Source: Escherichia coli (GTDB lineage: Bacteria > Pseudomonadota > Gammaproteobacteria > Enterobacterales > Enterobacteriaceae). Taken from it: a stretch of DNA of 64,000 nucleotides. This document shows positions 14,277 through 46,528 of this stretch, piece by piece. How positions within the stretch are numbered: position 1 is the stretch's first letter; the number at the start of each line of letters is the position of its first letter. The stretch is taken from assembly GCF_050920415.1 (NCBI RefSeq), contig NZ_CP169309.1; one strand, given 5' to 3'. The position numbers were made by a program, and so were the translations under genes. The notes under the pieces were generated by a model. That model was not told the origin of the DNA and did no database searches. It was given only the letters and a program-made list of their open reading frames with translations.

Positions 14277-16939
<2,663 letters not shown>

Positions 16940-16941
16940 TC

Positions 16942-18958
<2,017 letters not shown>

Positions 18959-18990
18959 TTTGTAAACCGTCCGGCACTCAATCGCCAAAA

Positions 18991-19218
18991 AGAAAAAAGC
19001 CAGCAGATAATCACTGCTGGCGTGGCGATTAACACCAATACTCAGTCACACATGATGTCCGCAAATCAGTAGTCAGAATGACTCCCCTCCCACTGCATCA
19101 GCTCTTCAAGCATGGTTAATCGTTGTGGGACGCTTAACCAACGCAACCAGCACAACTTCGCTGTCGCGGTAAAATAGTGCTGATAAAACTGACGCATGGG
19201 GCACCTCCTTGCTTCATC
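18991..19218 (-). ncRNA. sgrS: Small RNA SgrS (glucose-phosphate stress sRNA)
   Basis: Minus strand begins GATGAAGCAAGGAGG, contains the SgrT ORF and the seed-like stretch GTGTGACTGAGTATTGGTGT, ends in hairpin ccagcagtgattatctgctgg plus U-run; ends approximate. Confidence 0.85.
19066..19197 (-). CDS. sgrT: SgrT small protein encoded within SgrS
   Basis: 43 codons MRQFYQHYFTATAKLCWLRWLSVPQRLTMLEELMQWEGSHSDY with AGGAGG SD upstream. Confidence 0.85.
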   Translation of the reverse strand: MRQFYQHYFTATAKLCWLRWLSVPQRLTMLEELMQWEGSHSDY

Positions 19219-19285
19219 GTTAGGAATTATTGACTTAATATAGGGAAAATAAAATTGCTGTCTTTTGCGCAGGAGTTCCCCTTTT

Positions 19286-20941
19286 ATGCCATCCGCTCGT
19301 CTGCAACAACAGTTCATCCGCCTGTGGCAATGCTGCGAGGGTAAATCGCAGGACACAACGCTCAACGAACTGGCAGCGTTATTGAGCTGCTCGCGTCGTC
19401 ATATGCGCACCCTGCTCAACACCATGCAGGATCGCGGCTGGCTGACGTGGGAAGCGGAAGTCGGGCGCGGTAAACGCTCGCGTCTGACATTCCTCTATAC
19501 CGGGCTGGCGCTTCAGCAACAGCGGGCGGAAGACCTGCTGGAGCAGGATCGTATCGACCAACTAGTGCAGTTGGTTGGCGACAAAGCGGCTGTGCGGCAA
19601 ATGCTGGTTTCTCATCTGGGCCGCAGCTTCCGCCAGGGGCGGCACATCCTGCGCGTGCTCTACTATCGTCCGTTGCGTAATCTGCTACCTGGCAGCGCAT
19701 TGCGCCGTTCTGAAACCCATATCGCCCGGCAAATCTTCAGTTCGCTAACGCGCATAAATGAGGAAAATGGGGAACTGGAAGCAGACATCGCCCACCACTG
19801 GCAGCAAATATCACCGCTTCACTGGCGCTTCTTTTTGCGTCCAGGAGTCCATTTTCATCATGGTCGTGAACTGGAAATGGACGATGTGATCGCCTCTTTA
19901 AAACGAATCAATACGCTGCCACTCTATTCACATATTGCTGAAATTGTGTCGCCGACACCCTGGACGTTAGATATCCATCTCACGCAACCAGACCGCTGGT
20001 TGCCGTTACTGTTGGGACAAGTTCCGGCGATGATCCTGCCACGAGAATGGGAAACCCTCAGTAACTTTGCCAGCCATCCCATCGGCACCGGTCCGTATGC
20101 GGTGATCCGCAACAGCACCAATCAACTGAAAATTCAGGCATTCGATGACTTCTTCGGTTACCGGGCATTAATCGACGAAGTTAACGTCTGGGTTCTGCCG
20201 GAAATTGCCGACGAGCCAGCCGGAGGGCTGATGCTAAAAGGTCCACAGGGCGAGGAAAAAGAGATTGAAAGTCGGCTGGAAGAAGGTTGCTACTATTTAC
20301 TGTTCGACAGCCGCACCCATCGTGGGGCGAATCAGCAAGTCAGGGACTGGGTAAGTTATGTGCTTTCTCCAACTAATCTGGTCTATTTCGCCGAGGAACA
20401 ATACCAGCAACTCTGGTTTCCAGCCTACGGGCTGTTGCCGCGCTGGCATCATGCCCACCCGGCGCAGTGCGAAAAACCTGCCGGGCTGGAAAGCCTCACC
20501 CTGACCTTTTATCAGGATCATATTGAGCATCGAGTGATTGCCGGGATCATGCAGCAGATTCTGGCAAGTTATCAGGTCACACTGAAAATCAAAGAGATCA
20601 GCTATGATCAGTGGCACGAAGGAGAGATCGAGAGCGATATCTGGCTTAACAGCGCCAACTTTACGCTGCCGCTGGATTTTTCGCTGTTCGCGCATTTGTG
20701 CGAAGTGCCGCTGCTACAACACTGTATTCCGATCGACTGGCAAGCCGACACCGCCCGCTGGCGCAATGGCGAAATGAATCTGGCGAACTGGTGCCAGCAA
20801 CTGGTCGCCAGTAAAGCAATGGTGCCACTTATCCACCACTGGCTGATCATTCAGGGGCAACGCAGTATGCGCGGTCTGCGTATGAACACCCTCGGCTGGT
20901 TCGATTTTAAATCAGCGTGGTTTGCGCCGCCGGATCCATGA
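19286..20941 (+). CDS. sgrR: Transcriptional regulator SgrR (HTH plus solute-binding-like domain)
   Basis: 551-aa protein from [19 protein letters not shown], divergent from sgrS. Confidence 0.93.
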
Positions 20942-20979
20942 TTGCTGGTTGATAACAAAATCACTACACTAACGCCGTT

Positions 20980-21075
20980 CTCAACGGGGTGCCACGCTGC
21001 CGCGTGCGCTGAGAAAATACCCGTCGAACCTGATCCGGATAACGCCGGCGAAGGGATTTGAGGCTCCTTCTCAAG
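20980..21075 (+). promoter_or_regulatory. TPP riboswitch (THI element) in the thiBPQ leader
   Basis: Contains ggggtgcc...ctgagaaaatacccgtcgaacctgatccggataacgccggcgaaggga, matching conserved THI-box features, directly upstream of thiB. Confidence 0.8.
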
Positions 21076-21104
21076 TCCTTTGCCACTCTTCTTTGAGGTG
21101 CAAA

Positions 21105-22088
21105 GTGTTAAAAAAATATCTTCCCCTGCTGTTGCTCTGTACAGCACCCGCTTTCGCTAAACCCGTTCTGACTGTTTATACCTACGACTCCTTCGCCGCC
21201 GACTGGGGGCCAGGTCCGGTGGTGAAAAAAGCCTTTGAAGCCGACTGTAATTGCGAACTGAAACTGGTGGCGCTGGAAGATGGCGTTTCGCTTCTCAACC
21301 GTCTGCGGATGGAAGGCAAAAACAGTAAAGCCGATGTGGTGCTGGGGCTGGATAACAATCTGTTAGATGCCGCCAGCAAAACCGGGCTGTTTGCTAAAAG
21401 CGGTGTGGCAGCGGATGCCGTTAACGTTCCCGGCGGCTGGAATAATGACACTTTCGTCCCGTTTGATTACGGCTATTTCGCCTTCGTCTATGACAAGAAC
21501 AAACTGAAAAATCCGCCGCAAAGCCTGAAAGAATTGGTTGAAAGCGATCAAAACTGGCGGGTGATTTATCAGGATCCGCGCACCAGCACGCCGGGGCTGG
21601 GTCTGCTGTTGTGGATGCAAAAAGTCTATGGCGATGACGCCCCACAAGCCTGGCAGAAACTGGCGAAGAAAACGGTCACGGTCACCAAAGGCTGGAGCGA
21701 AGCCTACGGCCTGTTTTTAAAAGGCGAAAGCGATCTGGTACTGAGTTACACCACTTCTCCGGCTTATCACATTCTCGAAGAGAAGAAAGATAACTACGCC
21801 GCCGCGAACTTCAGCGAAGGTCACTATTTGCAAGTGGAAGTCGCCGCCCGCACCGCTGCCAGTAAACAGCCGGAGCTGGCGCAAAAATTCCTCCAGTTTA
21901 TGGTTTCTCCGGCTTTTCAGAATGCGATCCCAACCGGCAACTGGATGTATCCGGTGGCAAACGTCACGCTGCCTGCCGGTTTTGAAAAATTGACCAAACC
22001 GGCAACCACGCTGGAGTTCACGCCAGCCGAGGTGGCGGCACAACGTCAGGCATGGATTAGCGAATGGCAACGCGCCGTCAGCCGTTAA
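21105..22088 (+). CDS. thiB: Thiamine ABC transporter periplasmic binding protein ThiB (TbpA)
   Basis: Track ORF begins with TTG at 21093; start placed at GTG 21105 giving (M)LKKYLPLLLLCTAPAFA signal peptide; start uncertain. Confidence 0.9.
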   Translation: MLKKYLPLLLLCTAPAFAKPVLTVYTYDSFAADWGPGPVVKKAFEADCNCELKLVALEDGVSLLNRLRMEGKNSKADVVLGLDNNLLDAASKTGLFAKSGVAADAVNVPGGWNNDTFVPFDYGYFAFVYDKNKLKNPPQSLKELVESDQNWRVIYQDPRTSTPGLGLLLWMQKVYGDDAPQAWQKLAKKTVTVTKGWSEAYGLFLKGESDLVLSYTTSPAYHILEEKKDNYAAANFSEGHYLQVEVAARTAASKQPELAQKFLQFMVSPAFQNAIPTGNWMYPVANVTLPAGFEKLTKPATTLEFTPAEVAAQRQAWISEWQRAVSR

Positions 22089-23659
22089 TTCCAGGCGTAA
22101 GCGCCGCTACGCTTGTGGTGGCGGTTGCACTGGCGGCATTTCTCGCCCTGTGGTGGAACGCGCCGCAGGGTGACTGGATGGCAATCTGGCAGGACAGCTA
22201 CCTGTGGCATGTGGTGCGCTTCTCCTTCTGGCAGGCGTTTCTCTCGGCGCTGCTCTCTGTCGTACCCGCGATATTCCTCGCCCGCGCGCTCTATCGCAGG
22301 CGCTTTCCGGGTCGGCTGGCGCTGTTGCGTCTGTGCGCAATGACCTTGATCCTCCCGGTGCTGGTTGCTGTTTTCGGCATTCTTAGCGTCTATGGTCGCC
22401 AGGGCTGGCTGGCATCACTCTGCCAATCGCTCGGTCTGGAGTGGACCTTTTCGCCCTACGGCCTGCAAGGTATTTTGCTGGCGCACGTATTTTTTAATCT
22501 GCCGATGGCGAGCCGCTTATTACTCCAGGCACTGGAAAACATTCCCGGCGAACAACGTCAGCTTGCCGCCCAGCTTGGGATGCGCGGCTGGCATTTTTTC
22601 CGCTTCGTCGAATGGCCGTGGTTACGGCGTCAAATCCCGCCGGTTGCCGCGCTTATCTTTATGCTCTGTTTCGCCAGCTTCGCCACCGTGCTATCGCTGG
22701 GCGGCGGTCCGCAGGCGACCACTATCGAGCTGGCAATCTATCAGGCGTTGAGTTACGACTACGATCCCGCCCGCGCGGCGATGCTGGCGCTGATCCAGAT
22801 GATATGTTGCCTTGGGCTGGTGCTGTTGAGTCAGCGACTAAGTAAAGCCATTGCGCCCGGCACCACGCTGCTGCAAGGCTGGCACGACCCGGACGACCGT
22901 CTGCATAGCCGCATTTGCGACACGGTGTTAATTGTGCTGGCGCTGCTGCTGTTGCTGCCACCGTTACTGGCGGTGATTGTCGATGGGGTAAATCGCCAGT
23001 TGCCAGAGGTGCTGGCACAACCGGTGCTGTGGCAGGCGCTGTGGACCTCGTTGCGTATTGCGCTGGCGGCAGGCGTATTGTGCGTGGTGCTGACCATGAT
23101 GCTGCTATGGAGCAGTCGCGAATTGCGGGCACGGCAAAAAATGCTGGCGGGCCAGGCGCTGGAGATGAGCGGAATGCTGATCCTCGCCATGCCGGGGATT
23201 GTGCTGGCAACGGGCTTCTTTTTACTGCTCAACAACACCATCGGCCTGCCACAATCTGCTGACGGCATCGTGATTTTCACCAATGCGTTAATGGCCATCC
23301 CTTATGCGCTGAAAGTGCTGGAAAACCCGATGCGCGATATCACTGCCCGCTACAGCATGCTATGTCAGTCGCTGGGCATTGAAGGCTGGTCACGCTTAAA
23401 AGTGGTGGAGCTGCGCGCCCTGAAACGTCCGCTGGCGCAGGCGCTGGCCTTTGCGTGTGTGCTGTCGATTGGTGATTTTGGCGTGGTGGCGTTGTTCGGT
23501 AACGATGATTTCCGTACCCTGCCGTTTTATCTCTACCAGCAAATTGGCTCCTATCGTAGCCAGGACGGCGCGGTGACCGCGTTAATTCTACTGCTGCTCT
23601 GTTTTCTGCTGTTTACCGTGATTGAAAAACTACCGGGGCGAAATGTTAAAACTGACTGA
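22064..23659 (+). CDS. thiP: Thiamine ABC transporter permease ThiP
   Basis: 531-aa polytopic membrane ORF with duplicated ABC permease domains; overlaps thiB end. Confidence 0.92.
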
Positions 23660-46294: not shown

Positions 46295-46528
46295 CTAGAA
46301 GCTCCGGTACTCATCAGAGAAACATCCGGTTTCATCAGCCAATTGATTTAACGCAGCGATAGCTTCTGCGTTCTCTTCACGCCAACGTGTTGCTGCATGT
46401 TTTTTAAGTTCAGCATTGAGCGCAACCGTAAGGGTGGCGCTCATATTTAAGCCTGCATCACGAGCGCGATTGACTAACTCACGGTCGACGGTGACGGTCA
46501 CACTTTGTGTGGTACGTTTTGCAGTCAT
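46295..46528 (-). CDS. ccdA: ccdA-like antitoxin
   Basis: 77-aa ORF MTAKRTTQSVTVTVDRELVNRARDAGLNMSATLTVALNAELKKHAATRWREENAEAIAALNQLADETGCFSDEYRSF; CcdA-like, stop 2 nt before the ccdB-like ATG. Confidence 0.8.
   Translation of the reverse strand: MTAKRTTQSVTVTVDRELVNRARDAGLNMSATLTVALNAELKKHAATRWREENAEAIAALNQLADETGCFSDEYRSF

Follow-up and report, generated by a model that had tools for sequence, protein, structure and literature searches.

The 64-kb stretch of Escherichia coli DNA analysed here (hereafter the window) carries a joint at which leuD is followed almost directly by sgrS. The leuD coding sequence (18353..18958, plus strand; ORF list) encodes the 201-AA small subunit of 3-isopropylmalate dehydratase and ends in a TAG stop codon at 18956..18958. 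Its product is 98.5% identical to K-12 LeuD by tblastn, and the call is backed by the RefSeq annotation of NZ_CP169399.1, the complete chromosome of E. coli MFDS1022581, to which the window is 99.97% identical over 64 kb. The C-terminus of LeuD reads ...AFMR* in the window and in other setA-less Escherichia loci, versus ...AFMN* in K-12. Behind the stop codon lies a 28-nt spacer (18959..18986), which contains an old deletion junction according to alignments of the junction across Escherichia and to outgroups. It is followed, on the minus strand, by the U-tract of the SgrS terminator at 18987..18998 (TTTTTTCTTTTT on the sgrS strand, an A-run AAAAAGAAAAAA on the plus strand), identified from the sequence and a terminator scan, and by the intrinsic terminator hairpin of SgrS at 18999..19021. 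The hairpin, called from the terminator scan, the fold and the Rfam structure line, has an 8-bp stem with six G-C pairs (arms GCCAGCAG/CTGCTGGC) and a 7-nt loop, ATAATCA, at 19007..19013. The sgrS gene itself (18992..19218, minus strand), a CFT073/O157-type allele, matches Rfam RF00534 over its full length. On the same strand it includes the base-pairing (seed) region CATCATGTGTGACTGAGTATTGGTGT (19032..19057), identical to that of K-12, and the sgrT ORF (19066..19197), which encodes 43 AA from an intact ATG and was placed by protein alignment and annotation as WP_001248768.1. The divergent activator gene of sgrS, sgrR, occupies 19286..20941 on the plus strand (97.5% identity to K-12 SgrR by tblastn, and annotation).

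There is no real ORF in the gap between leuD and sgrS according to the ORF list, and tblastn with K-12 SetA gave no match in the whole 64-kb window. This bears out the first-pass annotation, made from the sequence alone, which had reported that setA is absent and had rightly given the K-12 arrangement, annotated as leuD, setA (1179 nt, opposite strand), sgrT/sgrS and sgrR. From the leuD stop to the 3′ end of sgrS the distance is 33 nt in the window versus 1255 nt in K-12. The approximately 32 bp originally given between the leuD stop and the SgrS terminator is a fair estimate, as 28 nt separate the stop from the A-run, 33 nt from the Rfam 3′ end and 40 nt from the stem.

The match of sgrS to RF00534 scores 228.9 bits (gathering score 37, E 7.9e-66) and is complete over model positions 1–232. 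The gene diverges from sgrR across a conserved promoter region (19187..19386, 98–99% identical to K-12), and its seed is followed by an intrinsic terminator with the poly(U) tail TTTTTTCTTTTT, the 3′ end typical of SgrS. SgrT, read from the embedded 43-AA ORF with its ATG start, is 84% identical to K-12 SgrT and ends in ...QWEGSHSDY versus ...QWDDRNSES in K-12; the same protein, WP_001248768.1, is annotated in CFT073, IAI39 and C 691-04A. Identity to K-12 is only about 75% in two stretches, the 3′-terminal 100 nt of sgrS and the final 45 nt of leuD, and 91–100% further out; the 3′ region of sgrS had been noted as differing from K-12 in a few bases, and so the difference stands while its extent had been understated. 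The SgrS sequences of CFT073 and O157 are 88% identical to that of K-12 and 99% to each other (Horler & Vanderpool 2009, PMC2760817), and setA is mapped in the synteny of Figure 2 of that paper. Judged by its sequence, the SgrS of the window is this known CFT073/O157-type allele (PMC2760817). With an SgrR-dependent promoter region, sgrT, the seed, a small 3′ hairpin and a U-tailed terminator, it is probably a complete dual-function sRNA, and in the setA-less locus the SgrS terminator would serve only to form the 3′ end of the sRNA.

The small 3′ hairpin reads GGUGUUAAUCGCC in the window and GGUGUAAAAUCACC in K-12, sequences that allow both forms to pair. Alignment of sgrS 3′ ends revealed two forms of this pre-terminator hairpin (window 19022–19045), whose distribution does not follow genus boundaries. 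The window type shares GGTGTTAATCGCC with Citrobacter, and GGTGTAAAATCACC is found in the K-12 type, Enterobacter, Pluralibacter and Superficieibacter, as well as in Salmonella, where it carries a 12-nt insertion. The two forms could reflect ancient polymorphism, convergence or transfer. The shared hairpin raised the idea of a Citrobacter origin for the window-type sgrS 3′ module, which we rejected, as these are some 40 nt under functional constraint in which homoplasy is possible. Variation at the sgrS 3′ end also occurs within the K-12 type: in the setA-bearing E. coli EBJ001 (NZ_CP086336.1) the gap between setA and sgrT is 86 nt versus 101 nt in K-12, 15 nt less, and the annotation suggests a small deletion in or just downstream of the 3′ end of sgrS.

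The arrangement is common. Among 5426 complete E. coli genomes, a 701-nt query (window 18700–19400) was contiguous across the joint in 2159, and a 111-nt joint query reached at least 80% coverage in 2141, with no match outside the approximately 2160 setA-less genomes. K-12 setA was present in 3239 genomes and any setA match in 3241, of which 3228 have a setA with 99% identity to K-12 or more; 3241 is also the number of genomes whose best match to window 18700–19400 falls in the 90–95% identity band, corresponding to the split match of the K-12 type. As 3239 and 2159 add up to 5398 of the 5399 matching genomes, presence of setA and the setA-less joint are mutually exclusive, and on these counts the locus is a clean two-state polymorphism in E. 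coli. Megablast-level counts over the 5426 genomes revealed no setA elsewhere in setA-less genomes. Locus annotation identifies Sakai, CFT073, IAI39, 042 and ST70 as setA-less, and the joint query also matches E2348/69, EDL933 and the Seattle 1946 strain; K-12, 55989 and REL606 bear setA. We take CFT073 to belong to phylogroup B2, Sakai to E, IAI39 to F and 042, the sole D reference strain, to D, and the three setA-bearing strains to A and B1.

The first-pass annotation had implied a notable deletion in this particular genome, while naming a joint common to a whole lineage as the finding that would speak against it, and had proposed alignment to other E. coli and a search for setA elsewhere as checks. 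The joint is indeed typical of whole lineages, amounting to about 40% of E. coli (2141–2159 of 5426), which refutes that reading on its own terms, and the setA-less genomes have no setA elsewhere at the megablast level. It is, in short, an ordinary joint that was already known: thousands of genome annotations show the arrangement, and a description of the linked SgrS allele dates from 2009; our literature search found no explicit statement of setA absence by phylogroup.

The setA-less state also extends beyond E. coli. The spacer and junction align base for base between the window, Sakai, 042, C 691-04A and ST70, and the same base-for-base junction is found in E. albertii, E. whittamii, Escherichia sp. 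E1V33 and ‘E. coli’ SCPM-O-B-8794; the window thus shares the leuD–spacer–terminator sequence by which the setA-less haplotype is defined. Within the 28 nt of the spacer, E. albertii differs from the window by about five substitutions and a 2-nt indel, a divergence more readily explained by a long history of separate descent than by a recent transfer.

Polarity was read from other enterobacteria. An exact-pattern scan with the SgrS seed, using one genome per species, returned 47 loci, three of which were chance hits outside the enterobacteria; the seed core CTGAGTATTGGTGT (19032..19045 in the window) was fixed in the pattern, and its presence in the other 44 enterobacterial loci is by construction. 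SetA is encoded directly downstream of sgrS in all 36 non-Escherichia enterobacterial loci with DNA past sgrS, among them those of Citrobacter, Salmonella arizonae and diarizonae, Klebsiella, Raoultella, Enterobacter, Pluralibacter, Siccibacter and Superficieibacter, and leuD directly follows setA in most outgroup loci with DNA extending that far. Relative to other enterobacterial genera, the setA-less form is a loss. K-12 setA is 77–80% identical at the nucleotide level to its counterparts in Citrobacter and Salmonella, with the same figures for the neighbouring sgrR, and this equal divergence indicates that the setA-bearing haplotype is Escherichia's own rather than a recent foreign gain. 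A search of a set of 5.8 billion proteins for a SetA of E. fergusonii or another intermediate was uninformative: the matches listed were 99–100% identical to the query, the named ones being from E. coli.

The breakpoint can be placed on one side only. In the outgroup alignment, sgrS-side homology to setA-bearing genera reaches down to about 18984, which puts the breakpoint approximately 15 nt beyond the terminator stem, and the 25 nt at 18959..18983 have no assignable counterpart. U-tract homologues in other genera read TTTTTTCGTTTC or TTTTTTCTTTTC in the alignment of sgrS 3′ ends. Microhomology at the endpoints is not readable in the alignments to K-12 and the outgroups, because the event is old and both haplotypes have diverged around it since. 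The stretch 18959..18983 faintly resembles one arm, the left, of the hairpin after leuD in K-12 (GTCCGGCACTCAAT versus GCCCGGTCAAAT) and also REP-like sequences from the spacers of Citrobacter; both resemblances were set aside as too weak to be evidence of microhomology.

We are confident that the setA-less joint is a standard form of the leuD-sgrS-sgrR locus and derives from a single ancient deletion in Escherichia. The ancestral enterobacterial order would have been sgrR / sgrS -> setA / leuD, from which one deletion, about 1.2 kb long and early in the ancestry of Escherichia, would have taken out setA, the ribosome-binding site of setA and the greater part of the spacer between leuD and setA. 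The resulting haplotype, linked to a distinct sgrS 3′ end, sgrT C-terminus and leuD 3′ end, would have been inherited since and would account for its presence in E. albertii, E. whittamii, other Escherichia lineages and about 40% of sequenced E. coli, with the K-12-type setA-bearing haplotype in the remaining E. coli, including strains assigned to A and B1. The seed-pattern scan recovered no E. fergusonii, E. marmotae or E. ruysiae, and the node of the deletion is thus not exactly fixed.

How the two haplotypes came to coexist within Escherichia is less certain. In the sgrR tree, E. coli forms one group, with MOD1-EC7003, then E. whittamii and E1V33, and then E. albertii as successive outgroups, and setA is present only in K-12 and MOD1-EC7003; one of the five non-K-12-like Escherichia species genomes recovered has the setA-bearing layout. 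In Escherichia sp. MOD1-EC7003, the 5′ end of setA and sgrS are 98–100% identical to K-12 while sgrR is 83–95% identical. The drop in identity marks an apparent interspecies recombination boundary near the sgrS/sgrR promoter region. This block pattern indicates that the setA-bearing haplotype has crossed a species boundary by recombination, and with such movement between species, descent alone does not explain the distribution of setA.

It is therefore conceivable, if somewhat less probable than not in our estimate, that the setA-less state is ancestral within E. coli and that setA re-entered A/B1 by homologous recombination from an Escherichia lineage that had retained it. The re-entering block would comprise setA and the 3′ ends of sgrS and leuD, and the K-12 reference arrangement would then be derived within the species. 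Such a history would agree with the lack of setA in E. albertii, E. whittamii, E1V33 and the reference strains assigned to B2, D, E and F, with its restriction to strains assigned to A/B1 and to MOD1-EC7003, and with the near uniformity of setA in the genomes that carry it (3228 of 3241 at 99% identity to K-12 or more). The highly diverged block is moreover short, approximately 50–250 nt on each side, and the MOD1-EC7003 setA-sgrS block, at 98–100% identity to K-12 next to an sgrR of only 83–95%, shows that the block moves between species. On the other hand, transfer between K-12-like E. coli and MOD1-EC7003 could have run in either direction and no donor lineage emerged, long-term retention of both haplotypes with lineage sorting would produce the same pattern, and the phylogroup labels on which the argument draws are assignments of individual reference strains.

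The leuC and sgrR of the window are only about 94–95% identical to those of the reference strains K-12, CFT073, Sakai and 042 (for IAI39, sgrR only), the window branches beside E. whittamii in a leuC tree, and identity of at least 99% over 6 kb (window 16000–22000) was found in only two of the 5426 complete genomes; this segment belongs either to a divergent lineage or to an imported region. A second presence/absence polymorphism lies 2 kb from the setA site, in the interval between sgrR and thiB (20942–21104): espY2, encoding a T3SS effector, is found there in Sakai, IAI39, 042 and ST70, and neither the window nor CFT073 has it before the TPP riboswitch and thiB. In thiP (22064..23659), an in-frame 15-nt deletion at 22090–22100 between direct repeats TTAATTCC converts PLIPGWLIPGV to PLIPGV and yields a ThiP of 531 instead of 536 AA; the deletion is absent from K-12 and from MFDS1022581, the nearest genome. 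Further along, an espY1 T3SS-effector gene (37120..37881, minus strand) adjoins a transposase remnant (36925..37103) between rluA and djlA, according to the annotation of a near-identical genome, and the chromosome carries an antitoxin gene, ccdA, between apaH and folA (45978–46528), beside a ccdB toxin pseudogene with an internal stop. In the annotation of a near-identical genome, caiE (window 61548–62137) has a frameshift.

With setA gone, leuABCD and sgrS converge on a single hairpin, which raises the question of what the hairpin terminates. The first-pass annotation had described A/T runs on both of its sides and suggested that it could end both convergent transcripts. Such runs are not in the sequence: on the plus strand the next 15 nt beyond the hairpin read GTGGCGATTAACACC, with two T in the first 8 nt, and the strand continues past the hairpin as GTGGCGATTAAC, so that a T-run is found on the sgrS side only. 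The U-rich tract on both strands by which bidirectional terminators are recognised is lacking, and the terminator scan finds a terminator-like site here on the minus strand only, which leaves the suggestion unsupported. Sequence and scan together indicate that the hairpin is a one-way terminator for sgrS, and it offers no canonical terminator for the leu operon. That it acts as a bidirectional intrinsic terminator for sgrS and convergent leuABCD is very unlikely in our judgement, even though it folds equally on both strands, its fold is lengthened by an outer 8-bp inverted repeat (18980–18987 / 19023–19030), no other hairpin lies between leuD and sgrS, and the window lacks the G+C-rich 8-bp hairpin (−17.4 kcal/mol) that follows leuD at 8 nt in K-12. 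By the rule of the terminator scan, neither the window nor K-12 has a canonical plus-strand terminator after leuD. The antisense-sgrS stretch at 19039–19158 is C-rich and G-poor (C/G about 1.9) and would suit Rho-dependent termination of leu transcripts.

The outer repeat deserves mention in its own right. Its left arm AATCGCCA (18980..18987) lies in the junction spacer and pairs with TGGCGATT at 19023..19030 in both the MFE and centroid folds of either strand, enclosing the sgrS hairpin and U-tract. The left arm is kept in every setA-less Escherichia junction, as AATCGTC in E. albertii, and the setA-bearing genera have nothing comparable downstream of the U-tract.

A more speculative notion is that read-through from leu couples the leucine operon to the glucose-phosphate stress circuit, through an antisense sponge for SgrS or through read-through into sgrR. 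The deletion would also have removed the G+C-rich hairpin after leuD, leaving leuABCD to end 33 nt from sgrS without a recognisable terminator. Unstopped leu transcripts would then run antisense through the SgrS terminator and seed and, 327 nt away, enter the co-oriented sgrR in sense; the conserved outer inverted repeat might be part of such an arrangement. Rho termination in the antisense stretch would prevent this coupling. We consider the coupling improbable; if true, it would hold for about 40% of E. coli, including UPEC and EHEC.

Two explanations that confine the joint to this one genome fare worse still. A recent, strain-specific deletion of setA has the comparison with K-12 as its sole support and is refuted, given that the identical joint occurs in 2141–2159 E. 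coli and four other Escherichia genomes and that its flanks are about 25% diverged from the setA-bearing haplotype, which is not expected of a recent deletion. An assembly artefact, such as a collapsed or mis-joined contig, can be dismissed, the same joint being present in more than 2100 independently finished genomes and the window matching a complete RefSeq chromosome at 99.97% identity along its 64 kb.

The practical weight of an ancient setA deletion is that of a caveat rather than a discovery. The K-12 model, in which the SgrS terminator is the switch between functional sRNA and setA mRNA, is inapplicable to about 40% of sequenced E. coli; CFT073, E2348/69, O157:H7, 042 and IAI39, as well as E. 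albertii, fall outside it because they have no setA. At the same time, the setA-bearing layout of K-12 represents the ancestral order across the family. For work on glucose-phosphate stress in pathogenic lineages, the CFT073/O157-type SgrS allele would be the apt one, and no contribution of SetA is expected.

Among known systems, the window is close to the glucose-phosphate stress locus of K-12, sgrR / sgrS-sgrT-setA. In both, sgrR diverges from sgrS, identity is 97–100% over the promoter region and over the 5′ two-thirds of sgrS, the 26-nt seed is the same, sgrT encodes 43 AA, and a U-tailed hairpin terminates the sRNA. The two also differ: the terminator stem of the window has one G-C pair more than that of K-12 and its tail is U6CU5 versus U8, seven of the 43 residues of SgrT differ, all at its C-terminus, and the window lacks a G, specific to K-12, by which a hairpin is closed over the ribosome-binding site of sgrT (GGAGGTGCCCC versus GGGGGTGCCCC in K-12). 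In K-12, setA starts 27 bp past the sgrS terminator and is expressed by read-through (PMC9765468). The window has no setA at about 27 bp past the terminator, hence no K-12-type sgrS-setA operon, and lacks the setA read-through mRNA as a product.

The CFT073 / O157:H7-type SgrS allele is of the same haplotype as the window, with an SgrT identical to that of CFT073 (WP_001248768.1). The window-type junction spacer recurs with one to three substitutions in C 691-04A, ST70, Sakai and 042, and the sgrS 3′ region is the same. Two differences from the window are that in O157:H7 the start codon of sgrT is replaced by ATT, where the window keeps ATG, and that CFT073 has IS200C inside the terminator T-tract, where the window has none. 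The CFT073 insertion site (NC_004431.1, 81.9–82.7 kb) reads ...AAAAAGAA, IS200, AAAAAAGCCAGCAG, so that only six U lie between the SgrS stem and the IS element. In the 6 kb around the locus, the window lineage is about 2% or more distant from all but two of the 5426 genomes. Finally, the joint resembles bidirectional intrinsic terminators in placing a single G+C-rich hairpin between convergent units, 40 nt from the leuD stop; such terminators have a U-tract on both strands, whereas the hairpin of the window has one on the sgrS strand only.
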